Below, in pieces: positions 841 through 42,662 of a stretch of 64,000 nt of DNA. The stretch is from contig JBBFKW010000007.1 in assembly GCA_037481835.1 (NCBI GenBank), positions 116,247 to 180,246 of the forward strand. The letters are read 5' to 3'. The position numbers and the translations under genes were made by a program. The stretch's first letter is position 1. The number at the start of each line of letters is the position of its first letter. The notes beneath the pieces are model-generated. The model saw nothing but the letters and a program-made list of their open reading frames with translations. It had not been told where the DNA came from and did no database searches. Source of the DNA: Desulfosoma sp. (GTDB lineage Bacteria; Desulfobacterota; Syntrophobacteria; Syntrophobacterales; DSM-9756).

Positions 841-2625
841 CTAGTAGACGCGTTCTTTGGGTTCGAACGTGGGCACCGTGAGCGGCTTCATGCGCACCGG
901 CTTATAGTCCAGGCGGATGGTGCCGTCCTCGTCCATGGTGGCCAGGGTGTGTTTGTGCCAGTTCACATCGTCCCGCGTGGGGTAGTCGTCGCGGTAATGA
1001 GCCCCTCGGCTTTCCCGCCGAGCCAGGGCCCCTTCCACGATGGCTTTGGAAAAATCGAGCATATGGCCCAGTTCCAAGGTTTCGATGAGATCCAGGTTAA
1101 AAGCCAGACCCTTGTCCGCAATGCCCACCTTCTTGAAGCGATCGCACAGTTTCTGCAAGATGCCCCTTTGGGTGACCAGGGTTTCTTCAGTGCGGAACAC
1201 GCCGCAGTTGAACTCCATGGTCTCTTTGAGCTCGTCCCAAATGGCCCCCATGCGCTCCGGACCGTTGCCGTTGAGGAGGTTTTTGACTTCCTCGATGCCC
1301 TTGCGGCCGGGATTTTCCGGCAGCGGCACGTGTTCCGGAAGGGATTCGGCGAATTCCGCCATGCGCTTTCCGCCCACCTTCCCGAAGACCATGATGTCGA
1401 GCAACGAATTGGAACCCAAGCGGTTGGCGCCGTGCACGGACGCGCACGCCGCTTCTCCCGCGGCGTAAAAACCCTTGACCGGCTCCTCCGGCTTGTCCAT
1501 CCCCCCGACGACCACTTCGGCGTACCGGTTCGTGGGGATGCCGCCCATGGAGTAATGGGCCGTGGGCGTGACCGGAATGGGTTCCTTGGTGCAGTCCACG
1601 TGGGCGAACACATAGGCGAGCTCCCAAATTCCCGGCAACCGCTCATGAATGAGGTCCGCCCCGATATGGTCCAGCTTAAGCAGGATATAATCGCCCTTGG
1701 GACCGCAGCCGCGCCCCTGGCGCATTTCTTCGGCCATGGCCCGGGAAACCACGTCGCGCGATGCCAAGTCCCACACGGTGGGCGCGTAGCGCTTCATGAA
1801 GCGTTCGCCGTCCTTATTGAGCAGATAGCCGCCCTCACCGCGCACACCTTCGGTGATCAAGTTGCCGACCCCGTAGATCCCCGTCGGGTGGAACTGGACG
1901 AATTCCAGATCCTCCACGGGAAGCCCCGCGCGCAGGGTCAAGGACAGCCCGTCCCCCGTATTGATGTGGGCGTTGGAGTTGGTTTTGTAGACGCGGATAT
2001 AGCCGCCGGTGGCGAACAGCGTGGCTTTGGCGTGGAAAATGTGGAAGCCCCCGTTGGCGATGTCCCAGGCCAGCACACCCACCACGTGGCCTTCGTTCAT
2101 GAGCAGTTCCAAAGCGAAAAATTCATTATAAAAGATAACGTGGTTTTTCACACACTGTTCGTAGAGCGTGTGGAGCATGGCATGTCCGGTGCGGTCCGCC
2201 GCGGCGCAGGTGCGGCAGATGGCTTCCTTGCCGAAGTTCTTGGTGTGCCCGCCGAACCGGCGCTGGAAGATCTTTCCGTCCTGAAGGCGGCTGAAGGGCA
2301 TGCCCATGTGTTCCAGTTCGATGACCACTTCCGGAGCCATCCGGCACATGAGCTCAATGGCGTCTTGGTCGCCCAGGTAGTCGCTTCCTTTGATGGTGTC
2401 GAACATGTGCCAGACCCAATCGTCCGGCTCCACGTTGCTTAGGGACGCCGCCACCCCGCCCTGGGCCGCCACCGTGTGGGATCGCGTCGGAAACACCTGA
2501 CTGATCACCGCCGTATCGACGGACTTGGAAGCTTCCAGGGCCGCTCGAAGTCCCGCGCCCCCGGCGCCGACGATCAGAGCGTCGTGCTTATGAACTATGA
2601 CTGGAATATCTCCCATGGTCGACAT
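841..2625 (-). CDS. sdhA: Succinate dehydrogenase flavoprotein subunit
   Basis: GAGGAG FAD loop, [10 protein letters not shown] covalent-FAD His, [29 protein letters not shown]; start at 2625 or 2616. Confidence 0.97.
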
Positions 2626-2638
2626 CGCTCCTTTGCTG

Positions 2639-3004
2639 CTAGGCTTGCACTTTGAGAGTGACGATGGTGAGGACGCCCAACCCGAAAAATCCGATGGCCA
2701 CAACCCACAGAGCCCCCACGAGGACCGCCCGCACGCCGGGCGTGTGCACATAGTCGTCGATGATCATCTTGAAGCCGTTCATGGCGTGATAGACGGCGAA
2801 AATGAGGAAGGCGATGTCCAGCGCTTTCCACGCGGGGGACACCATGCGCGCCATGACCTTTTGATAGGTGACGGGGCCTTCCGTGGCGTAATGCAGCACC
2901 CAGAAATGAAGAAACAGGGTGATCAACAAGGCGATGCCCGATACGCGCTGAAAAAACCAATCGAAAGCCCCGGACCGGCCGGATCCGAAATATTTGCCCA
3001 ACAT
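2639..3004 (-). CDS. sdhD: Succinate dehydrogenase hydrophobic membrane anchor
   Basis: WFFQRVSG, three TM helices, HAMNG..IIDDY motif. Confidence 0.92.
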
Positions 3005-3019
3005 AGTGTGTGCCTCCTC

Positions 3020-3406
3020 TTAAAGACCGAACGCCAGCCGAAGCATGGGGACCGCCCCGGCTCCGACCAAAACGGCTGAGACGGCCAACACGGCGTAGAC
3101 CACCTTGCGCATGATGTCCCGCTTGGCCAGGTTGCCGTAGTCGATGAAAACCACTCGGAGCCCGTTCAACCCGTGGTAGACCACCGTCGCCAGAAGGCCG
3201 ATTTCCATAAGGTGGAAAAACGGCGACTGCACGACGGCCATCACCTCATTGAAGGCTTCTTCTCCCTGAGACAGATGATGGATCACCCAAATGTGCAAAA
3301 AGAGGTAGACTCCCAGGAGGATCCCCGTGGCACGGTGGAGGATCCAAGCCAGGTAGCCCGGGTGGAGCTTGTAGCGGACCTTGGGTTGAAACACGACTTT
3401 CTTCAT
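3020..3406 (-). CDS. sdhC: Succinate dehydrogenase cytochrome b556 subunit
   Basis: ILHRATG and YHGLNGLR motifs, three TM helices; GGAGG RBS before ATG at 3406. Confidence 0.92.
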   Translation of the reverse strand: MKKVVFQPKVRYKLHPGYLAWILHRATGILLGVYLFLHIWVIHHLSQGEEAFNEVMAVVQSPFFHLMEIGLLATVVYHGLNGLRVVFIDYGNLAKRDIMRKVVYAVLAVSAVLVGAGAVPMLRLAFGL

Positions 3407-3497: not shown

Positions 3498-4061
3498 TCA
3501 AGCCGTTCGGGCGTAGCGCCGCACCCCTTCTTGGTAAAGATCCCCGCCGTGGACGTCGTTTGCCACGATTACCGGAAAATCCTTGACTTCCAAGCGCCGG
3601 ACCGCTTCCGGGCCCAGTTCCGGATAGGCGATGACCTCCGCTGAAAGAATGCTTCGAGCCATCAAGGCGCCGGCTCCCCCGATGGCGGCGAAATAAACAG
3701 CCTTGTGCCGGCGCATGGCATCCTTGACCGCGTCGCTGCGGGCGCCCTTACCGATCATTCCTCGAAGTCCGTGGCGGATGAGCAGCGGCGCATAGGCGTC
3801 CATGCGGTAGCTCGTGGTGGGACCCGCCGCGCCGACGGGCCGGCCGGGCTGCGCCGGAGACGGTCCCACATAGTAGATAACCTGCCCCGAAAGATCGAAG
3901 GGTAAAGGCTGCCCCTTTTCCAGCAGTTCCACGAGGCGCTTGTGGGCGGCGTCCCGCGCCGTATACAAGACGCCGTTCAACAACACGCGGTCACCGATCT
4001 TGAGCGCCGTCACGTCCTGTTCGCTCAAAGGGGTCTGCAATACGATGGCATCCGGCATCAT
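3498..4061 (-). CDS. Fe-S hydro-lyase (class I fumarate hydratase / tartrate dehydratase) beta subunit
   Basis: TARDAAHKRL, GPTTSYRMD, MIGKG motifs; upstream of sdh operon. Confidence 0.92.
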   Translation of the reverse strand: MMPDAIVLQTPLSEQDVTALKIGDRVLLNGVLYTARDAAHKRLVELLEKGQPLPFDLSGQVIYYVGPSPAQPGRPVGAAGPTTSYRMDAYAPLLIRHGLRGMIGKGARSDAVKDAMRRHKAVYFAAIGGAGALMARSILSAEVIAYPELGPEAVRRLEVKDFPVIVANDVHGGDLYQEGVRRYARTA

Positions 4062-4128: not shown

Positions 4129-4968
4129 TTACAATGAGGCTTCCTTGTGGCGCGCCGCATGGCATTGGATGTTCACGGCCACCGGAAGACTCGCGATGTG
4201 ACACGGCATCATCAGAATGTGCACGGCAAGGGAAGTGATGCGACCTCCCAATCCCTGAGGGCCGATTCCCAGGCGGTTTATGGCTTCCAGCCAGTCCGCC
4301 TCCAAAGCCCCGAGCTCGGGGTCGGGATTGGGACTGCCCAGAGGGCGCAGGAGCGCCTTTTTGGCCAAAAGGGCCGCCTGTTCGAAGGTGCCCCCGATCC
4401 CGACACCCACGATGGTCGGCGGGCATGGGTTGGGCCCGGATTCCTTGACCCGCTGCACGACGAAGTCCTTCACTCCTTGAATGCCCACGGCAGGAGTGAG
4501 CATGGTCACGCGGCTCATGTTTTCGCTTCCGCCCCCTTTGGGCGCCAGGATCAGGCGGAAATGGTCGCCCGGCTGCACATCGATGTGGATAATGGCCGGG
4601 GTGTTGTCGCCCGTATTTTGGCGGGTAAAGGGGTGGCAAATGCTTTTTCTCAGGTAGCCGTCCCGATAGCCTTGCCGGACGCCCTCTTCGACGGCCTCCC
4701 GCAGGGATCCGCCCTCGATGTGCACGTCTTGGCCCATGTCCACGAACACCACGGCGAAGCCGGTATCCTGGCACATGGGAATTTTTTCGGCGCGGGCGAT
4801 CTCGGCATTTTCGATGAGGCGTTTCAGGATGTCACGGCCTGTGGGGGACTCTTCCTTCTCCAAAGCCGCTTCGAAGGCGCGTAGGACGTCGTCGCCGAGT
4901 TCTGTATTGGCCCGGATGGCCAGGTCTCGAATGGTGCGGACGATGTCATCCACGTGGACGGAACGCAT
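4129..4968 (-). CDS. Fe-S hydro-lyase (class I fumarate hydratase) alpha subunit
   Basis: PMCQDTG, KGGGSEN, NPCPP, HIASLPVAVNIQCHAAR motifs. Confidence 0.93.
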   Translation of the reverse strand: MRSVHVDDIVRTIRDLAIRANTELGDDVLRAFEAALEKEESPTGRDILKRLIENAEIARAEKIPMCQDTGFAVVFVDMGQDVHIEGGSLREAVEEGVRQGYRDGYLRKSICHPFTRQNTGDNTPAIIHIDVQPGDHFRLILAPKGGGSENMSRVTMLTPAVGIQGVKDFVVQRVKESGPNPCPPTIVGVGIGGTFEQAALLAKKALLRPLGSPNPDPELGALEADWLEAINRLGIGPQGLGGRITSLAVHILMMPCHIASLPVAVNIQCHAARHKEASL

Positions 4969-6653: not shown

Positions 6654-7157
6654 TCACCTGTGGGAACGCATGGCGAGGAATCGGGACACCGCCGTCGCGC
6701 CGTGGGCGACGAGCTGTGCCATGAACACGATCAACCCGAGAGGGATGGCCGATTGGGGGATCCACATGGGCGTTTGTGATGGGGTTTCCGACACCATGCC
6801 AAGGCTGTGGGCTTCCTTGACCAAGGAAAGGGAAAAGGCGAGGGCGAACCCGGTCAAGGCCAAGGCGGTGGCTGTGACAAGGGCGTCCAGGACGTGGCGT
6901 GTCCGTTCACGCAATCGGGACGTGACGACTTTCACGCGAATGTGGCCGTCCGTTCCAAGGGTATGCCCGAGGCCGAAAAAGACGAGCACCACGTAAAGGT
7001 AGGCGCTGTATTCGTCGGTGATCATGGTGGAGGTGTTAAACAGGGATCTCAGGAACACCTCGAGAAGGATGAGCAAGACAATGAGAAGCATGGCCACCGA
7101 AGAACACAGGGCCGCCTTCTCGGACAAAAATTGTGCGAATCGGATGAGTTTTTCCAT
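6654..7157 (-). CDS. dctQ: TRAP transporter small permease (DctQ)
   Basis: Four TM helices, GHIRV motif, lies between dctP and dctM. Confidence 0.9.
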   Translation of the reverse strand: MEKLIRFAQFLSEKAALCSSVAMLLIVLLILLEVFLRSLFNTSTMITDEYSAYLYVVLVFFGLGHTLGTDGHIRVKVVTSRLRERTRHVLDALVTATALALTGFALAFSLSLVKEAHSLGMVSETPSQTPMWIPQSAIPLGLIVFMAQLVAHGATAVSRFLAMRSHR

Positions 7158-7269
7158 ATTTTCAAAGCATGCCATGGAATAGGCGGGGTCGCCCGTTTTC
7201 GGGCAACCCCACGGCCTGCTTCATTGGGACCGAAAACCTCTGGGGACAAAAAGGTCCCCGGCCGTGCCG

Positions 7270-8256
7270 TTATTTCTTTTTCCTGAAACTTTCCACCACG
7301 GCGGCCACGTCCGGTCCGGCATCGGCAAGAAAACCCTTGATGATGGCATCCGCCGCCTGATCCAGTTCCGCGGCCAAGGCGGCGTCGGCCTCTCCGATAA
7401 CCATGCCGTTTTCCGCGATGGCTTTGAGAGACTCTTCATTGTCGGCGGCGGACTTCTTCCACTGCATCTCCTGGACTTCCTTGGCCGCCTTTTCCATGGC
7501 GGCCTTCTGGTCGGGTTTTAGCGCCTTCCAGTAGTCCAGGTTGATGACGACCATGTTGAGCGGGTAGGCGTAGTCGATTTTTTTGTAGTATTTGAGAACT
7601 TCCCAAAGCTTTGCGTCACGCCCCGAAACAGCCGAGGTGAGCACCGAATCGATCATACCCGTGCGAAGGGCCGCGTACACTTCCCCCCAAGGCAGGGACA
7701 CGGGGCTTCCCCCCAGGTTGGCCAGGAAATCCGCGCCGTTTTTGTCATAGGTTCTGGTCTTGAGTCCCTTGATGTCGGCGGCCGTCTTCACTTCTTTCGT
7801 CGTGAACAATCCGCTGGGAGGCCACGGGACCACGTAAAGGATCTTCTGGTTCCATTTCGCCGCAGCCTTGTCGTAAAGCTCCTTGCACGCTTCATAAAGC
7901 TTCCAGGCCTCGTCGTACGAGGTCACCATGCGGGGCAGGGAACTGATTCCGAAGGCCTTCTCACTCCCTTGGACGACCCCCATGAGGATGTCCGACATGG
8001 GCACCGTGCCGTCCTTGACCGTCTTGAGCAGCTCCGGCCCTTTGAACCCTAGGGCCCCCCCGGGATGGACGGCGATGTCCACGGTCCCGCCGGTGTACTC
8101 CTTGACGCGTTTGGCGAATTCCTCGGCGCCTTGGGAGTGAAAATTGGTCGCCGGGTAGATGGCGTTGAGGTTCATTTTGACGACGTCGGCGGCCGAAGCG
8201 GGCCGGGCTGCAAAGAGACTTAAGAACAGAAACAGGACGAGTGATTTTCGAACCAT
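7270..8256 (-). CDS. dctP: TRAP transporter substrate-binding protein (DctP), probably 5-oxoproline-binding
   Basis: Signal peptide MVRKSLVL...ASAA; HPGGALG, DIKGLKTR, WGEVYAALRTG motifs; downstream of pxp genes. Confidence 0.92.
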   Translation of the reverse strand: MVRKSLVLFLFLSLFAARPASAADVVKMNLNAIYPATNFHSQGAEEFAKRVKEYTGGTVDIAVHPGGALGFKGPELLKTVKDGTVPMSDILMGVVQGSEKAFGISSLPRMVTSYDEAWKLYEACKELYDKAAAKWNQKILYVVPWPPSGLFTTKEVKTAADIKGLKTRTYDKNGADFLANLGGSPVSLPWGEVYAALRTGMIDSVLTSAVSGRDAKLWEVLKYYKKIDYAYPLNMVVINLDYWKALKPDQKAAMEKAAKEVQEMQWKKSAADNEESLKAIAENGMVIGEADAALAAELDQAADAIIKGFLADAGPDVAAVVESFRKKK

Positions 8257-8308
8257 GGGTATCCTCCGTGTTTGGGGTGAAACCAAGAGCCCTTGGCGGG
8301 CCGCCTTG

Positions 8309-8426
8309 GAGCCTGTCTGAGAACGAACCCGAAGGCCTCTTGTCCTGGGAGCGCGGGCCTCCGGCCCGCACGAGAAGCGGGCGAGACGCCCGTGCTCCCA
8401 GGAATATGCCATTCTCGGACAGGCTC
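8309..8426. mobile_element. 118-bp MITE with 15-bp TIRs and 4-bp target duplication
   Basis: GAGCCTGTCTGAGAA (8309-8323) / TTCTCGGACAGGCTC (8412-8426), one mismatch; CTTG on both flanks (8305-8308, 8427-8430); internal inverted repeat 8343-8403. Confidence 0.8.
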
Positions 8427-8565
8427 CTTGGATAAACGTCCGAACCGACTCATCGAACGGCCGTTTTCCCGTTTGGGTGTCCGTTGGGCTCGGGGGCTTG
8501 AGGCTTCGACGTACCTCTTTTCTGATCCCGTCCCGGCGCGCTGACGGGGAGCGGCCGCGATCGTT

Positions 8566-8596
8566 GTTGGGGTTCGCTGCGCTCACCCCAACCTAC
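8566..8596 (-). repeat. GTAG-type REP element
   Basis: Reverse complement GTAGGTTGGGGTGAGCGCAGCGAACCCCAAC: GTAG foot plus palindrome; near-identical copies at 33223 and 33284. Confidence 0.85.
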
Positions 8597-8697
8597 AGGT
8601 TCTAAGGGTTCGTGAGGATTGCCCGGGGCGGCCATCGCTCCGTGTTTCGCACACGATTCGGGCGAAGAGCAAGAAAAAGATGAGGCCCGTGAACTTT

Positions 8698-9486
8698 TCA
8701 GGCCGTTCCCCGGCGCTGGGCTTCGAGCACGCGGCGAAGGGGGACCACCGCGATACCGGAACTTTCCAAAGCTTCGCGGATGGCCGCCGCCACGTGGGCC
8801 GCCCCCGGCGTGTCCCCGTGCACGCACAAGGTGTCCGCCTCCATGGGTACGTCCCGACCCGTGATGGATCGGACCGTTTTTTCCCGCACCAGCCGAAGGA
8901 CGCGTTCGCGGACCGTCTGCGGGTCGTGGATGACGGCGCCGGGCATGGAACGCGGCGCCAGAGCTCCTGAATCCGAATAGGCCCGATCCGGAAAGAACTC
9001 CCGGGCGACCACGAGCCCCGCTTGCACGGCCGTGCGAGCCAGCGGGCTTTGGGGCAGCGTGACCAGAATGAGCGTCGGATCGAATGCCTTCACGGCCTCA
9101 CACACCTCAAGGGCCAGCCGTTCGTCGAAAGCCGCCATGTTATAAAGGGCGCCGTGGAGTTTTACATGCTGCAGGGATGTCCTGTAGGCGCGAGCCAGAC
9201 CGGCCAGGGCCCCCAATTGGTACAGCAGGTAGTGCTTCACTTCACCGGGAAAGGTTTCCAGAGCGCGACGGCCGAATCCCATGAGATCCGGAAAGCCGGG
9301 ATGGGCGCCCACGGCCACGCCGTGATCCATGGCGAGCCGGATGGTCTTCCCCATGACCACGGGATCCCCGGCGTGGTAGCCGCAGGCGATGTTGGCCGAG
9401 GTGACGGCCTTGATGACCGCCGGATCGTTCCCCAGGGTGTAAGCGCCGAAGCTTTCCCCCATATCGCAGTTGATGTCGATCATCAT
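8698..9486 (-). CDS. pxpA: 5-oxoprolinase subunit A (LamB/YcsF family)
   Basis: DINCDMGESFG, SANIACGYHAGD, GAHPGFPD, HVKLHGALYN, TLCVHGD motifs. Confidence 0.95.
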   Translation of the reverse strand: MMIDINCDMGESFGAYTLGNDPAVIKAVTSANIACGYHAGDPVVMGKTIRLAMDHGVAVGAHPGFPDLMGFGRRALETFPGEVKHYLLYQLGALAGLARAYRTSLQHVKLHGALYNMAAFDERLALEVCEAVKAFDPTLILVTLPQSPLARTAVQAGLVVAREFFPDRAYSDSGALAPRSMPGAVIHDPQTVRERVLRLVREKTVRSITGRDVPMEADTLCVHGDTPGAAHVAAAIREALESSGIAVVPLRRVLEAQRRGTA

Positions 9487-9490
9487 GGGC

Positions 9491-10444
9491 TCATGGGCCT
9501 CCCTGCCGAAGAAGGTGGAAAAATCGACGGATCTTGTACCCCCGCTTCAAGTGGGCTTCTCGGGCTTCCAAAAGGTCGACGGCCTGGAATCGGAGCGAGC
9601 GGCCCGGCGCGGTTTGGACCAAAAGCGGCAGGTCCAAGGAAAGGACCGTGGCGATTTTGGCGTACCCGCCCGTGGTGGGACAATCTGCCAAGAGCACGAA
9701 AGGAAGGCCTTCTCCGGGGACTTGGACGGCCCCGAAAGCCAAGCCTTCGGAAACAATGTCGGCTGCTCCGCGGTGTTTAAGCCGAGGTCCGTCGAGCATC
9801 ATGCCCATGCGATCGCTTCGTGTTGTGACGCGATAAGGGGCGCTGAAAAAAGCATCGAAGGCCTCGGGGCAGAAGGCTTCCGCCTGCGGCCCGGGAACCG
9901 CGCGGACTGTGGGATGGGCGGCATACGGCGGGCGCAGACTTTCCGGAATGCGTCCCGACGGCTTCTGCGGCCCGCCGGGATCCGTTTCCAGAACATCTCC
10001 CGGGCGCAAAGTCCGCCCCTCCAAGCCTCCGAAATGCCCTCGAAGATACGTGGACCGGCTCCCCAGCACAAAAGGGACGTGGATCCCTCCGGCAAGGCAC
10101 AGGTAATGCCACAGTCCCAAGCTTCCCGCATCGATGGAGAGCACATCGCCGGCTTGGGCGGTGTGGGACGTCCAGAGATCGATGCCCCGGCCGTTAAGGC
10201 GCACTTCGGGGTCAAAGCCGGTGACGGCGAAAAAGGCTTCTTTCAGGAAGCGGGCTCGAAAGCCGCCCGAAAAGATTTCCAAAGCGGCGGCTCTGGCGTT
10301 GTTCCCCAAAAGTCTATTGCCCAATTCCAAGGCCGCCCGGTCCATGGCCCCCGAGACGGGAACCCCCTTGTCCTGGAAGCCGTAACGCCCCGCGTCCTGC
10401 ACGGTGGTGAGAGGTCCGGATGCTTCAATGGCTAAGGTTTTCAT
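9491..10444 (-). CDS. pxpC: 5-oxoprolinase subunit C (KipA/AHS2 family)
   Basis: TTVQDAGR, GVPVSGAMD, VLGSRST, SDRMG, TTGGYAKI motifs. Confidence 0.93.
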   Translation of the reverse strand: MKTLAIEASGPLTTVQDAGRYGFQDKGVPVSGAMDRAALELGNRLLGNNARAAALEIFSGGFRARFLKEAFFAVTGFDPEVRLNGRGIDLWTSHTAQAGDVLSIDAGSLGLWHYLCLAGGIHVPFVLGSRSTYLRGHFGGLEGRTLRPGDVLETDPGGPQKPSGRIPESLRPPYAAHPTVRAVPGPQAEAFCPEAFDAFFSAPYRVTTRSDRMGMMLDGPRLKHRGAADIVSEGLAFGAVQVPGEGLPFVLLADCPTTGGYAKIATVLSLDLPLLVQTAPGRSLRFQAVDLLEAREAHLKRGYKIRRFFHLLRQGGP

Positions 10445-37337: not shown

Positions 37338-37775
37338 ATGTGTCTGCATCAAAGGCGCTCATGCGAATGCGGCCGAAATGAGGCCTATGTCTTCCACCGG
37401 GACAGTATCCTCCCGGAAGAGGTTTTGGTCCATCTTTACTGTCCCGAATGCGCGGTTTCGGTCACTTGGGATGGCCGGACCATGGTCCGGGACGTGGGCT
37501 GGATCCTTGAATACGACATGGAAGCGGCCCGCTTTTACCTGGGCCGGCGACTCGGACGCCTCGACTATTCCCCTGAGGATGTCTTCGACGAAGACTACTG
37601 CAGCTGGTACGGTCTCACACCCATGGATCTGGAAGCCAGCAGGCGGCTCCATGAAGAACTGGAGCCGCTCAAGCGAGATGACCTCAAAGCCTACATCCGC
37701 GAGATCACGCGACGCCGTCAGGACCAAGTGCAGGCCCTGAAGCTCCAAGGATGGCGCAAAGCCGCCCGCACCTGA
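37338..37775 (+). CDS. Hypothetical protein with CxC/CxxC motifs
   Basis: AAGGAGG RBS; CECG and YCPEC. Confidence 0.7.
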   Translation: MCLHQRRSCECGRNEAYVFHRDSILPEEVLVHLYCPECAVSVTWDGRTMVRDVGWILEYDMEAARFYLGRRLGRLDYSPEDVFDEDYCSWYGLTPMDLEASRRLHEELEPLKRDDLKAYIREITRRRQDQVQALKLQGWRKAART

Positions 37776-38652: not shown

Positions 38653-38946
38653 TTATGGAGTGCGCAACGGCCGCCCATGGGTCGGCGGGGGCAGAGTGCC
38701 CGTCCGGCCCCCTTGCCTCTGAAGACGAAGATCCTCCCTGTCATGAAAGGTTTTGTTGATCAAGAAGTCCACCCCGTATGCGAGAATGCCCAGGCACGCG
38801 ACGAGGATCAGGAAGCGACGCATGAGGGTGCCGAAGCGGATTTTGGCGCGCAGGCGCTGCGCCCAAGGAAAGGGGGCGAGCCCCAAGGCCGTCGCGAGAA
38901 TGAGCAGCGGCAGCACCACCCTGAGAAACAGCAGCTTCGTGAACAT
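38653..38946 (-). CDS. Small membrane hypothetical protein
   Basis: Two hydrophobic segments, GGGGAGG RBS; low-complexity tail. Confidence 0.45.
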   Translation of the reverse strand: MFTKLLFLRVVLPLLILATALGLAPFPWAQRLRAKIRFGTLMRRFLILVACLGILAYGVDFLINKTFHDREDLRLQRQGGRTGTLPPPTHGRPLRTP

Positions 38947-39094
38947 GAAGATCCCTCCCCGCCGGTTTTAAAAACCCTTGCGAAATCACAGCCGATTAAC
39001 CATATGATATCCAAGAATGTCTTCGGCGGACAGAGCCCAGGAGGACGGGGCGCGGGTGGCGGATCGGAAAGGGCAAGAAAAAGGCGGCGACGGC

Positions 39095-39712
39095 ATGACG
39101 GCTCCCATGAAAAGGCGGGCCTCTTCCCCGGCGACCCTTGAGGACAAATGCAAGGAACTGGAAGTCTTCTATGAGACGTTCGAGCGGGCGACGGCGCCTT
39201 TCATCGCCCAGGCCGTTTGCGGTCCCGGCTGTGCCGATTGCTGCACCAACGTGGGCGAGATTTACGCCGCTACGCTGGAAGGTTTGCGCATCATGACCTA
39301 CATGGAAGCGTTGCCGATCTTTCAAGCCGCCGCCCTACGTCAAAAGATCGCCGAAAACCGAGCGCAAAAAAAGCACAACGTTCTTTTGCCCTGTCCGTTC
39401 CTCGACCCCGACAAGCGGTGCGCCATTTATCCGGTGCGCCCTTTCAGCTGCCGGCGTCTGTATTCCGTGGAACCCTGCGGGGCCAAAGGCCCCGTGGTGC
39501 ATCGAGAGTTCTGGGCCCTGGCGGAGCAGTTCACGCGGGCTCTCCAGCTGCTGGATCCCAGGGGCTATTCCGGCCACGTGAGTTACATTCTCGGGCTCCT
39601 GGAGGACCCTTCTTTCTTGGAAGCCTATTTGGTCGGCCGAGCCTACCCGACGGGCTTGGCGTCCGTCGTTCAAGAGTTCGATCTTTTGGCCCATGCCCAC
39701 CTGGGGGTTTAG
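39095..39712 (+). CDS. YkgJ family (CxxCxxCC) cysteine-cluster protein
   Basis: CGPGCADCC, CPFLD..CAIYPVRPFSCR; start uncertain (39017/39095/39107). Confidence 0.88.
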   Translation: MTAPMKRRASSPATLEDKCKELEVFYETFERATAPFIAQAVCGPGCADCCTNVGEIYAATLEGLRIMTYMEALPIFQAAALRQKIAENRAQKKHNVLLPCPFLDPDKRCAIYPVRPFSCRRLYSVEPCGAKGPVVHREFWALAEQFTRALQLLDPRGYSGHVSYILGLLEDPSFLEAYLVGRAYPTGLASVVQEFDLLAHAHLGV

Positions 39713-39714
39713 TC

Positions 39715-39936
39715 ATGGCCTGGCACGCCATCGTGTTTTGGAAAAGCGCCGGATCCGGTCCTTTGGGCTGGCATTGGCGTCTCACCAACGCCGAACTGGG
39801 CGTGGACGAGGGTGCTCCGGCGGATTCGGTGGAGCAGGCCTCGGCTGCCATCCGCGCCGCCCTGAAACAGCACGGCGCCGCCCCTGAAACCGTCCCCGTG
39901 GAGATTTGGGACGAGGGCGTCTGGGAAAAGTGTTGA
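39715..39936 (+). CDS. Small Trp-rich hypothetical protein
   Basis: ATG 3 nt after the ykgJ stop; MAWHAIVFW..GWHWRL..beta-beta-alpha pattern. Confidence 0.6.
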   Translation: MAWHAIVFWKSAGSGPLGWHWRLTNAELGVDEGAPADSVEQASAAIRAALKQHGAAPETVPVEIWDEGVWEKC

Positions 39937-39966
39937 TCCCTTGAAGAAATCCGCCCTGCACGAGCT

Positions 39967-40695
39967 ATGAGCTTCTTCTGTTACCTCATCGTGGACCGCT
40001 GCTGCGTGTTGGCGGCGGACAACAAAAAGCACGTCGTCACCGTGAAAACCACAGGGGAAGGCCGATCCACGGTCGAAGAGCTGACCGCCGGTGATGCGCG
40101 CAAGATCTTCCCTCTGGGGGACGGCTGGTGGATGACGGGGGTGGGCCTATCCGCCTTTCTCCAGAAGGTTCTGGGCCAAGTGCGAGAGGCTCTTCAAGGC
40201 GCCCGGCCGGGTGCCGAACCGCCCTTTGCCGTTATGGAGAGGTTGGCGGAAAATCCCGGGTGGATGCAGCGCCTCTACCGTCAGGGTTTGGAGGCCCTGA
40301 GAGACAGGCTTCCTGCTGGGCTAGGACAGATCGAAGCGCTGGAAGGGGTTCAGGAAATCGTTTTTGCGGGCTTCGACGCCGCGTCTTTTCCCGTTGTCCT
40401 GCGCTCGCGAAGTGACGCCGACTTCGCCTTCCGGCGTGGGTGCGGCCCCGGCGTCGTGGGTTTTACCGGCGAAAACGGCTTCTGGGATTCGGCTGTTGAA
40501 GAAGGAATCCGCGTTTTCCTTGCCGATGTGGCCGAAGACCTCCGGGCATGTCCCCCGGCCCGAATCGCAGACCGTGCCTGGGATCTTCTCCCCCCGCTCT
40601 TTCAAAGACTCTCCCGCGCTTTTCCCCGGTGGCTTTCGGCGCACGGAGACCTGGTGTGCCTCACGCCCCAGGGTCATCGCTGGTTTCTTTTCTGA
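39967..40695 (+). CDS. Proteasome-beta/HslV-like Ntn-hydrolase-fold protein with N-terminal Ser
   Basis: After Met removal: S1, VLAAD17, RKIF with Gly 14 residues later (K33/G47 spacing), IVFAGFD. Confidence 0.65.
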   Translation: MSFFCYLIVDRCCVLAADNKKHVVTVKTTGEGRSTVEELTAGDARKIFPLGDGWWMTGVGLSAFLQKVLGQVREALQGARPGAEPPFAVMERLAENPGWMQRLYRQGLEALRDRLPAGLGQIEALEGVQEIVFAGFDAASFPVVLRSRSDADFAFRRGCGPGVVGFTGENGFWDSAVEEGIRVFLADVAEDLRACPPARIADRAWDLLPPLFQRLSRAFPRWLSAHGDLVCLTPQGHRWFLF

Positions 40696-40743: not shown

Positions 40744-41604
40744 TTACAGCGTCAGGAAGCTTCGAGCGTCTTCCATGGCTTCGATGATCTTGATCAGGTA
40801 TCCGTCGATGCGTTCCTGAGTGATCCCCAATTTTTCCAGGATCTTATCTGAATCGGGTTGGAGGAAATCGGCGGCGCTCACCCCGATCCCGATGCTGTGG
40901 ACCAACCGATTGGCCGCATAGAGGATGGCGGCCACGTCCTGGTGATGCTTGGCGTCTGTGGGATTGTGGTGGAATCGGATCCCCGTTTGGACCTCCGGGG
41001 GGAAGTTCCATCGATGGGCGATGAGGGCGCCGAGATCCTGATGGTTGATCCCGATGACTTCCCGTTCGGCTTCAAGGAATGGGATGCGGCGCTCTTTCGC
41101 CAGCAGATAAATGGTGTCGAAATAGTCGGGAACCTGCCGGTCCAGAACCGTTTTGCCGATGTCGTGGAGCAACCCCGCCGTGTAGATGGTCAGGACCCGT
41201 TGTCTTTGAAGGTCTTCGGCGATGATTTGAGAAAGGAGCGCTACGGCCACCGAATGAATCCAAAGTTCGCCTTCGCGCAGATCGTAGGACCTCAGCTGGC
41301 CTCGGAAGTAATGGGCCGAACAGGCCATGAGAATGATTTCCACGAGCTGGCGCTGCCCGAGGACGATGATGGCGTCGCGCAGCGAACGGATCTTGTAGCG
41401 TCGGGCGTAAAAAGGGGATCGGGCGATGGAAAGGACCCGGGCGGTGATCGCTTGATCGTAACGAATGACGGCCTCGATTTCCGCAACGGGGGCCATGGCC
41501 CTCAGCAAAGGGATGACGCGGGTGACCACCTTGGGAAACGGCGGCAGCCGATCCACGGCTCTGAGGATTTCATCCAGAGCGGGCTTGGTGACGATGGTGG
41601 CCAT
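40744..41604 (-). CDS. HDOD domain protein
   Basis: LPPFP, DQAITARVL, WIHSVAVA, AGLLHDIGK, HRWNFP..IRFHH. Confidence 0.9.
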   Translation of the reverse strand: MATIVTKPALDEILRAVDRLPPFPKVVTRVIPLLRAMAPVAEIEAVIRYDQAITARVLSIARSPFYARRYKIRSLRDAIIVLGQRQLVEIILMACSAHYFRGQLRSYDLREGELWIHSVAVALLSQIIAEDLQRQRVLTIYTAGLLHDIGKTVLDRQVPDYFDTIYLLAKERRIPFLEAEREVIGINHQDLGALIAHRWNFPPEVQTGIRFHHNPTDAKHHQDVAAILYAANRLVHSIGIGVSAADFLQPDSDKILEKLGITQERIDGYLIKIIEAMEDARSFLTL

Positions 41605-41648: not shown

Positions 41649-42176
41649 TCACAGGGGCGGCAGGAGGTGGAATTCCCGCCCGTACCGAACCTGATCCACG
41701 TTTTCCAACTGCTCGATCACCTGTTGGATTTCCGTGGGATCGTCCACAAGATCCCGGGCTTTCTGCAAGAGATGGATGGCGGCCTGCAGGTAGATCCCCG
41801 CCTTGGTCCGGCGCACCTCGTAGTCGGCCCCGATCCAAATGGTGAAGGACTTGTCGTCCTGTTCCACCGTGAAATTGCCGACCCCCCTAGCAAACCGCCC
41901 GAGGGCCTGCAGGACGCCGATCACTTTCTTGTGCGTCTGCGCATCAACGACGCCTTCCATGTCGATACGGAATTTGCCCGTGTGCGGATCGAACTCCACG
42001 ACCGGAAGCGCGTCCGATTCCTCCAGGGATCGGGCCGTCTCCTTGAGGAAACGAAGAGGCGGGCCAAGCTCCTTGTCCCGGGAAGGGTCCAAAATCACGG
42101 AACCGTAATAGGATGCGTAGACTTCCATCGAGTCCATCTCCCCCAAACTCTCATCGGTCGTTTCCTCAAAAAACAT
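41649..42176 (-). CDS. Hypothetical protein
   Basis: Plausible ORF co-oriented with the HDOD gene; start may be an internal Met. Confidence 0.6.
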   Translation of the reverse strand: MFFEETTDESLGEMDSMEVYASYYGSVILDPSRDKELGPPLRFLKETARSLEESDALPVVEFDPHTGKFRIDMEGVVDAQTHKKVIGVLQALGRFARGVGNFTVEQDDKSFTIWIGADYEVRRTKAGIYLQAAIHLLQKARDLVDDPTEIQQVIEQLENVDQVRYGREFHLLPPL

Positions 42177-42299
42177 AAATTTTTTCCCGCCCCTTCGGCC
42201 CACCCCTTTGACCGTTCAGGGGGCGTTCTTAAAGTAATGCGTACGAAGTCTATGACGCGTCGGGGATCTTCTGGCAATCCTTTTCGGAGAGGCACCGTG

Positions 42300-42662
42300 A
42301 TGATGGATGAGGAAGCCTTGAAAAATCGGCGGGATCTTGTGGCGGAAATCGACTGGGACATGACGCCCGAACGGGCCGTGGAAACGTACCTGGAATGGGG
42401 CACGGGATGGTCCCGCAAAGGGCAGGCCGCCACGGTTCCCGGTCAGGAATCGCTCTATTTCGTGATTTACGCGTGGGAAGAGCCGCCCCAGGCCACCCTG
42501 GTCCGGCAAAATTCCCTAGGAATGGAAGAAGTGGCCAAGATCGCCGTGCCGGCTCCCATGGTGCGGGAAATCGTGGAACGCGAAGGTCGAAAACCCGGGG
42601 TCGGAGTCTACGCCTTGAGCGATGAGCTGAAACGACGGCTTCAAGAGCGCCTGGGCCTTTAG
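42300..42662 (+). CDS. DVU0772-like protein
   Basis: IDWDMTPERAVETYLEWG signature, YFVIYAWEEPP. Confidence 0.7.
   Translation: MMDEEALKNRRDLVAEIDWDMTPERAVETYLEWGTGWSRKGQAATVPGQESLYFVIYAWEEPPQATLVRQNSLGMEEVAKIAVPAPMVREIVEREGRKPGVGVYALSDELKRRLQERLGL

Follow-up and report, generated by a model that had tools for sequence, protein, structure and literature searches.

The window, a stretch of 64,000 nucleotides of Desulfosoma sp. (contig JBBFKW010000007.1, positions 116,247 to 180,246), was found to carry a gene for a predicted N-terminal nucleophile (Ntn) hydrolase of the proteasome type, which is accompanied by a small gene encoding a protein of 73 amino acids, called p73 in the following. The enzyme-p73 pair is the conserved core of the locus and p73 is a real partner gene, because the pairing recurs in two independent lineages, while a third gene, encoding a YkgJ-type protein, belongs to the unit in only one bacterial family. 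The reading favored here, to which a probability of about 0.55 is given, is that the enzyme is a propeptide-free Ntn hydrolase that acts together with p73 as a substrate-specific peptidase or transpeptidase, and not as a bulk protease. It is favored because of the gene pairing, an insertion beside the active site, and the lack of an unfoldase. The two genes are:

39967..40695, plus strand: proteasome-fold Ntn hydrolase homologue of 242 amino acids, Ser1 type, without propeptide (ATG start; assignment from the AlphaFold2 model and structural alignment)
39715..39936, plus strand: p73, 73 amino acids, of no known family, ending in an invariant Lys-Cys, conserved neighbor of the enzyme gene (starts with MAWHAIVF)

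The ATG at position 39967 is the first start codon after an in-frame stop codon. No in-frame start codon exists upstream of it, and the open frame comprises only 252 codons. The N-terminus of the protein reads MSFFCYLIVDRCCVLAADNKK, and Ser2 and Asp18 become Ser1 and Asp17 once the methionine has been removed. The segment RKIFPLGDGWWMTGVG contains Lys46 and Gly60, which are exactly 14 residues apart, and the motifs IVFAGFD and DLVCLTPQG are formed by residues 131-137 and 228-236, respectively. A preliminary description of the locus, which had been made from the sequence alone, had quoted these strings, and all of them are present at the places given there.

The 242-residue protein did not match any family of Pfam or NCBIfam at E<=1, and a search against the PDB sequences yielded nothing significant (best E 0.23, an unrelated enzyme). 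Relatives were retrieved with a word-indexed search of 5.8 billion proteins, which found 14 proteins of 229-242 amino acids with identities of 34-100%; those with names come from Desulfacinum or Desulfosoma, and each carries the annotation "hypothetical protein". When 1.84 billion cluster representatives were searched exhaustively with phmmer, 15 proteins were obtained at E<=0.001, mostly 225-265 amino acids long and 25-64% identical, one of them a fragment of 97 amino acids, and a profile search added one further relative. Metagenome contigs, scanned for neighbors of distant members, gave no confirmed relative with a family alignment (A3) and, with the distant metagenomic member P0026, only two partial matches of 33% identity (residues 158-231), which were set aside. 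All accessions seen for the clusters of the family are unannotated. An Atlas look-up returned unnamed clusters at 0.96 as well as one cluster in which 19% of the members carry PF00227, the proteasome family, which can be taken as a lead only. A defence or phage origin of the enzyme or p73 is not supported, because neither had a match in PADLOC or PHROGs.

To assess residue conservation, 49 distinct family sequences were brought together (51 before the removal of two duplicates); their sources were the protein searches, the members of the clusters and the loci. In all 47 sequences that have an N-terminus (the other two are N-terminal fragments), the residue right after the start codon is a serine, which bears out the start at 39967 assumed in the preliminary description. 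The residue preceding the serine is methionine in 39 cases, valine in five and leucine in three. Valine and leucine are most simply read as GTG and TTG starts, because in five of these cases the called open reading frame (ORF) is 14-25 residues longer, and one cluster also has a form of 240 amino acids that begins with Met-Ser. Asp18, Lys46, Gly58 and Gly60 are each present in 49 of 49 sequences. The serine and the aspartate are 16 residues apart in all 47 sequences, and the lysine and the glycine 14 in all 49; both distances are those of the proteasome. The serine, the aspartate, the lysine and the two glycines are kept in members with identities down to 24%. None of these residues varies among the 49 distinct homologues and a proteasome fold is predicted, so that the motifs recognized in the preliminary description are more than a chance resemblance.

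The distance from the aspartate to the lysine, in contrast, is 28 residues in the Desulfacinum/Desulfosoma group and 24-25 in a distant group, compared to 16 in the proteasome, and therefore the family has an insertion of 8-12 residues at this site. An insertion of about 12 residues before the lysine had already been proposed for the protein of the window. It coincides with the low-confidence stretch of the structure model (residues 23-42). The second residue after the aspartate is lysine or arginine in 38 of 49 sequences, a position at which beta subunits carry Arg19. Ser224 (44 of 49) may correspond to Ser169 of the proteasome, judged by its position only. Methionine aminopeptidase prefers a small second residue, and because of this preference the initiator methionine is probably removed, which would expose the serine as residue 1. 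The codons in question are:

39970..39972, plus strand: Ser2, predicted N-terminal nucleophile after removal of the methionine (47/47; model alignment)
40018..40020, plus strand: Asp18, counterpart of proteasome Asp17 (49/49)
40033..40092, plus strand: residues 23-42, insertion peculiar to the family and located between Asp18 and Lys46 (spacing; model confidence below 50 at residues 23-30 and 32-42)
40102..40104, plus strand: Lys46, counterpart of proteasome Lys33 (49/49; the profile alignment described below is not significant alone)
40144..40146, plus strand: Gly60, counterpart of Gly47 of the oxyanion hole (49/49, always 14 residues after the lysine)

A structure model of the enzyme was built with AlphaFold2 on an alignment of 23 family sequences (A2). 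It has a mean predicted local distance difference test (pLDDT) value of 84.8 and a predicted template modeling score of 0.84, and pLDDT falls below 50 only at residues 23-30 and 32-42. Foldseek found at least 500 matches in the PDB at E<1e-3, and all of those among the matches listed are 20S proteasome entries (best E 8.3e-8; template modeling scores 0.45-0.66). As an approach independent of Foldseek, 48,161 chains were searched with VIA-align. The best match was a 20S beta subunit (Z 17.1, 186 aligned residues, root mean square deviation 3.4). Other beta and alpha subunits had Z values of 13-17, Anbu 15.7, HslV 12.9, connectase 12.1 and BPH 10.7, while small-molecule Ntn amidases (penicillin V acylase, bile salt hydrolase and ceramidase) scored 9-11. 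The first 18 rows, down to Z 12.1, are proteasome-family chains without exception.

Residue 2 of the model is paired with chain residue 1 of the mature beta subunit 6e5b_K, of Anbu 5loy_A, of HslV 1m4y_A, and of connectase 6zw0_A. Asp18 ends the second predicted strand (residues 12-18), Lys46 lies just before the strand 47-51, and Gly60 follows the strand 54-59. Judged from the ranges of the structural alignments and the register of the secondary structure elements, Ser1, Asp18 and Lys46 would cluster in space. The A2 profile also paired Lys46 with the lysine of the beta2 chains 8p0t_I and 8oix_I; beta2 subunits, aligned at the Lys-Gly segment, were its top matches in the PDB, with an E value of 0.18 that is not significant alone. 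The order of the secondary structure elements fits the proteasome topology, and helices 62-78 and 86-114 (H1/H2) are kept between strands 4 and 5. An extra helix follows H1, and three helices (175-193, 197-207 and 209-218) are predicted where proteasome subunits have two (H3 and H4). The last element is the strand 236-241 of the 242 residues, and a C-terminal H5 helix is missing. According to the model, the enzyme is thus an alpha-beta-beta-alpha Ntn sandwich of the proteasome type, as had been suspected from the sequence motifs.

The p73 frame is the 3'-part of a longer, mechanically called ORF (39217..39936), and its stop codon is separated from the ATG of the enzyme gene by 30 nucleotides. 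To follow the two genes in other genomes, profiles of both were used. The enzyme profile found the family in six of 401 genomes sampled across the phylum and in 11 of the 122 genomes of the class, with one copy per genome, and thus the family is rare. It is present in seven of nine genomes of the window's own bacterial family (the genome of the window, G000, counted) and in four of 81 genomes of a second one. Strong matches of the p73 profile (E<=3e-31) were obtained in eight of the 122 class genomes; all eight are among the 11 that have the enzyme, and in all of them p73 adjoins the enzyme gene. The gap between the reported matches is 33-40 nucleotides in seven genomes and about 110 nucleotides in the eighth (G456). 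None of the 111 class genomes that lack the enzyme has a strong match. The sole other match, in a genome without an enzyme match (G493), is a partial one of 36 residues (E 0.0025) inside a frame of 466 codons.

G456 belongs to the second bacterial family. There the gene order is reversed, the enzyme (1678..2400) being followed by the p73 homologue (2511..2732), which is 36% identical across all 73 residues (tblastn E 4e-13). Its contig of 7.4 kilobases (kb) contains no YkgJ gene, and the neighbors are unrelated and include ribosomal protein genes, identified by eye. In the protein database only eight p73 clusters exist, and for five of them the longest contig has the same size as that of an enzyme cluster.

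A comparison of 13 p73 sequences revealed the invariant residues W9, G18, W19, W21, S38, L50, G54, V60, D66, G68, W70, K72 and C73, and every one of the 13 ends with Lys-Cys. The AlphaFold2 model of p73 (pLDDT 88.3) consists of strand-strand-strand-helix-strand plus a short terminal helix, and its final three residues, with a pLDDT below 50, are predicted to be disordered. None of the 13 members gave anything beyond noise against Pfam at E<=10, and a comparison with the PDB folds gave no clear match (best Z 5.4, a value that chance arrangements also reach). One UniRef record is named "DUF2188 domain-containing", an assignment to which the Pfam scan gives no support. An Atlas look-up returned only unnamed clusters, below 0.9. 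A predicted complex of the enzyme (alignment A2) and p73 (alignment A4) had a score of 0.00 against a mark of 0.32, which speaks neither for nor against binding.

The preliminary description had treated the enzyme, p73 and YkgJ genes as a unit of three. This held for the 73-residue protein, which is linked to the enzyme beyond close relatives, and had to be restricted to one bacterial family for the YkgJ gene. The latter adjoins p73 in four of four Desulfacinum/Desulfosoma loci examined and in none of four loci of the second bacterial family, so that it is part of the unit only within the Desulfacinum/Desulfosoma family. In the window, its stop codon TAG (39710-39712) is followed by two nucleotides and then by the ATG of p73 at 39715. 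Met27 at 39095 is the more likely true start, because the homologues measure 193-206 amino acids. The order YkgJ-p73-enzyme-HDOD is common to the four Desulfacinum/Desulfosoma loci examined, which are close kin and in which the wider neighborhood is also syntenic. The genes that accompany or border the pair in the window are:

39095..39712, plus strand: YkgJ-type CxxCxxCC protein (PF03692, E 4.5e-7, 30.9 bits, cut-off 23; the start at 39017 given in the preliminary description is possible, but less likely)
38653..38946, minus strand: upstream boundary, conserved predicted membrane protein of 97 amino acids (the same ORF of 97 amino acids at the same place in loci L001 and L004; no match in Pfam)
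40744..41604, minus strand: downstream boundary, convergent HDOD/HD-domain gene (PF08668, E 1.1e-51; the form of 286 amino acids is 77-94% identical in loci L001 to L004)

An AAA+ gene or an alpha subunit was not found among 60 ORFs scanned with Pfam, in agreement with the preliminary description, which had seen neither in the window. These 60 were taken from 85 ORFs of at least 110 amino acids in the region from 27 to 53 kb; the other 25 overlapped the genes described here or genes already scanned. The scanned neighbors are DNA repair, helicase, kinase, Fe-S, transglycosylase, regulator and signaling genes. Over the whole genome, which is 99.4% complete, PF00227 matched at one locus only, on another contig (C10), where a gene for HslV is directly followed by one for HslU. 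In this HslV (locus L005, 1453-2022) about 18 residues precede Thr-Thr-Ile-Leu, which are either a propeptide or indicate a later true start, and the HslU gene (2027-3403) begins four nucleotides downstream.

It is very likely, as far as model and alignment can tell, that the protein is an active Ser1 Ntn enzyme, given its fold, a start that does not shift between members, and a Ser/Asp/Lys/Gly set that is invariant and spaced as in the proteasome. Its mechanism would be as follows. Methionine aminopeptidase would strip Met1, so that the serine becomes residue 1, and the serine hydroxyl would attack a peptide or amide carbonyl. Lys46, the counterpart of Lys33, would be held by Asp18 (Asp17) and accept the proton, the backbone NH of Gly60 (Gly47) would stabilize the oxyanion, and the amino group of Ser1 would shuttle the proton. 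The enzyme would serve no AAA+ unfoldase, p73 would be its dedicated substrate or its regulator, and the flexible insertion of 8-12 residues between the aspartate and the lysine could help to select the substrate. It is tempting to speculate further that p73, at its C-terminal Trp-x-Lys-Cys or close to it, undergoes cleavage or transpeptidation by the Ser1 enzyme; this terminus is both invariant and flexible. The pair would then be a two-protein system, and in Desulfacinum/Desulfosoma YkgJ would act on the same cysteine; this is regarded as a long shot.

Several observations weigh against a p73-linked proteasome-type peptidase or transpeptidase. At the sequence level the proteasome family was not reached: none of 23 family members matched PF00227 (cut-off 22.4 bits) at E<0.1 (best E 0.29), and an hhalign comparison of the family with the genome's own HslV gave a probability of 1%. 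The counterparts of the proteasome residues Ser129 and Asp166 are not conserved, and residues 165-168 vary. The closest outlier relative, a protein of 214 amino acids in a genome of the same phylum (G003; locus L013, 361-1005), has an asparagine in place of the catalytic lysine. It aligned to A2 over 202 columns with an hhalign probability of 96.9% (E 1.3e-10), and reached 21.1 bits on PF00227 (E 2.6e-4), which is 1.3 bits below the cut-off. It starts with Met-Ser and keeps the aspartate and the glycine, and the insertion is absent. A search with it across the 401 phylum genomes found only itself and yielded no bridging family. As to the partner, the pairing rests on two independent lineages only, and p73 is absent from three enzyme-bearing genomes of one genus, called g9 here (G368, G444 and G446, with completeness values of 99, 95 and 86%, respectively), and therefore the enzyme can exist without p73. 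Furthermore, helices H1 and H2, which mediate ring contacts in the proteasome, are kept in the model, and the best structural matches are ring-forming subunits.

The last point leads to the first alternative, a self-compartmentalizing ring protease like Anbu, BPH or an uncapped 20S particle, which would be homo-oligomeric and free of an ATPase and would degrade unfolded peptides, p73 being a cap, a gate, an assembly factor or unrelated. The Z values of 17.1 for the 20S beta subunit and 15.7 for Anbu fit such a protease, as do the two helices, and ATP-independent roles for orphan homologues are discussed in the survey of prokaryotic proteasome homologues by Fuchs, Alva and Lupas (2021; PMC8665760), of which parts were used here. 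Yet the same parts of the survey state that insertions occur at defined sites and that those between H3 and H4 could prevent double rings, and the model of the enzyme has its surplus helix in this region. The additional helix that follows H1 and the insertion adjoining the active site are likewise not what a ring protease would lead one to expect, nor is the end of the protein right after the strand 236-241, without H5. A ring protease is therefore judged to be an unlikely explanation, albeit one to be taken seriously.

Second, the enzyme could be an Ntn amidase whose substrate is a small molecule or a modified peptide, for instance an amide made by neighboring ligases, and its protein-like context would then be incidental. 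The Ntn fold does support small-molecule amidases, as the Z values of 9-11 for penicillin V acylase, bile salt hydrolase and ceramidase illustrate, and the three g9 loci without p73 have a suitable context: the enzyme gene lies beside a gene for Amidoligase_2 (PF12224, E 2.7e-29) and is also adjoined by class-II glutamine amidotransferase-like genes, of which there are one or two (PF13230, E 4.3e-14). Class-II glutamine amidotransferases are another Ntn family, and the context could hint at a pathway with amide-forming and amide-cleaving steps. The g9 genomes are, however, close kin, so that their context counts as one observation; the proteasome-family chains score far higher (Z 12-17 compared to 9-11), and the catalytic set is the Ser/Asp/Lys/Gly of the proteasome at proteasome spacing. 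An amidase of this kind is considered quite improbable. A catalytically dead scaffold that keeps the proteasome fold, like alpha and inactive beta subunits, would be in line with the lost lysine of the outlier relative G003, but hardly explains, without selection on catalysis, the invariant serine, aspartate, lysine and glycines and the fixed start down to 24% identity, and is thus very improbable. The g9 loci with the amidoligase/amidotransferase context are:

L012 (G368): 6820-9671
L028 (G446): 918-2625
L027 (G444): 4502-4810

Two further genes were noted near the enzyme in g9. One is a conserved Cys-rich ORF of about 95 amino acids next to the enzyme gene (L027, 3239-3559; L028, about 3706-3996; L012, 5602-5895), which has no match in Pfam and whose orientation relative to the enzyme differs in L028 from that in L027 and L012. 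The other is a small gene that was taken to be of the GYD type by eye, without a scan.

The p73-linked peptidase or transpeptidase has to be seen against the background of the survey mentioned above (PMC8665760), the statements on which refer to the parts used here. It describes 22 new families of prokaryotic proteasome homologues, all with a Thr1/Ser1, Asp17, Lys33 triad and Gly47; propeptides are confined to beta subunits and HslV, and for the homologues these parts report that neither a co-occurring AAA+ partner nor an informative gene context was found. The enzyme resembles these orphan homologues in being bacterial, in its length of about 240 amino acids, the catalytic set, the lack of a propeptide and of an AAA+ partner, and the narrow distribution; it differs in having a conserved neighbor of 73 amino acids. 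Two of the families of group II deserve mention. PMI-5 (19 nr90 sequences) is confined to Proteobacteria, then including Deltaproteobacteria, and carries insertions both at the S3/S4 site, where it is unstructured, and between H3 and H4; the unstructured insertion before the lysine and the extra helix in the H3/H4 region of the enzyme resemble them. PHD, the "Proteasome Homolog of Deltaproteobacteria", comprises 55 nr90 sequences. The family of the enzyme could be PMI-5 or PHD, a comparison made by description only. The representatives of the two, WP_179179973.1 and OGP72033.1, are not among the accessions listed for the clusters of the enzyme family. A literature search for the family, for a proteasome homologue of Desulfacinum/Desulfosoma or for either accession retrieved no paper besides PMC8665760. 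The module had been called undescribed; for its class this does not hold, since orphan Thr1/Ser1 homologues are already contained in the survey, as far as its parts used here go, while the neighbor of 73 amino acids is new. The enzyme is thus a new or unannotated member of the kind described in 2021, and the new element is the conserved partner gene.

Connectase (MJ0548 / MM_2909; DUF2121), a protein ligase with the proteasome fold, had been named as a Ser1 relative. According to the parts of its description used here (PMC7980362), connectase is a monomer, an amide intermediate is formed on its N-terminal residue, and the active-site mutants are S1A in Methanocaldococcus jannaschii and T1A in Methanosarcina mazei. 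The comparison as a Ser1 relative therefore holds for the M. jannaschii form, with which the enzyme has the N-terminal serine in common, and not for that of M. mazei, which starts with threonine. Both the enzyme and connectase have an Ntn fold (Z 12.1), no propeptide and an insertion near the active site, and connectase has a single dedicated protein to act on, a working model that is adopted here for p73. The insertion of the enzyme presumably lies where connectase has its substrate lid. That of connectase consists of two helices, whereas that of the enzyme is modeled as a low-confidence hairpin (pLDDT below 50). In addition, connectase is archaeal and lacks the first helix pair H1/H2 (PMC8665760, parts used here), which the model of the enzyme keeps, and the enzyme is structurally less similar to it than to beta subunits.

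With the 20S beta subunits, the best structural match (Z 17.1), the enzyme shares the same catalytic residues at the same spacing. It differs from them by the lack of an alpha subunit in the genome and of a propeptide, by serine in place of threonine, by the insertion of 8-12 residues before the lysine, and by extra helices after H1 and between H3 and H4. HslV (Z 12.9) is likewise a bacterial proteasome homologue, but the enzyme is about 65 amino acids longer, has Ser1 and no HslU neighbor, and occurs in a genome with a standard HslV-HslU pair elsewhere. Anbu (Z 15.7) is also bacterial and without an ATPase partner; it has a long C-terminal H5 helix (PMC8665760, parts used here), whereas the enzyme ends right after its last strand.

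Connectase is a case in which a little-known proteasome homologue of narrow distribution proved to ligate proteins precisely and to be of use in biotechnology. Should the enzyme indeed cleave or transpeptidate p73, the pair would be the counterpart of connectase in bacteria, or else a system for the tagging or maturation of a small protein on the proteasome fold. Judged by the parts of PMC8665760 used here, none of the 22 catalogued homologue families had a gene context that pointed to a function; the enzyme-p73 pair supplies one, and the conserved neighbor offers a first clue to the targets of such orphan enzymes. If p73 turned out to be irrelevant, the family would still merit an entry in Pfam, as another proteasome homologue without annotation. 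Hosts of the Desulfacinum/Desulfosoma type are thermophilic sulfate reducers, and therefore stable proteins that lend themselves to expression can be expected.

Three further conserved genes of the window, all without a match in Pfam, were noted. Positions 37344-37775 (plus strand) encode a protein of 143 amino acids with two CxxC-like pairs, which lies between NUDIX and acyltransferase genes and is syntenic in loci L001 and L004. Downstream of the HDOD gene, conserved ORFs at 41649-42203 (minus strand) and at about 42300-42662 (plus strand) are both also present in L004.

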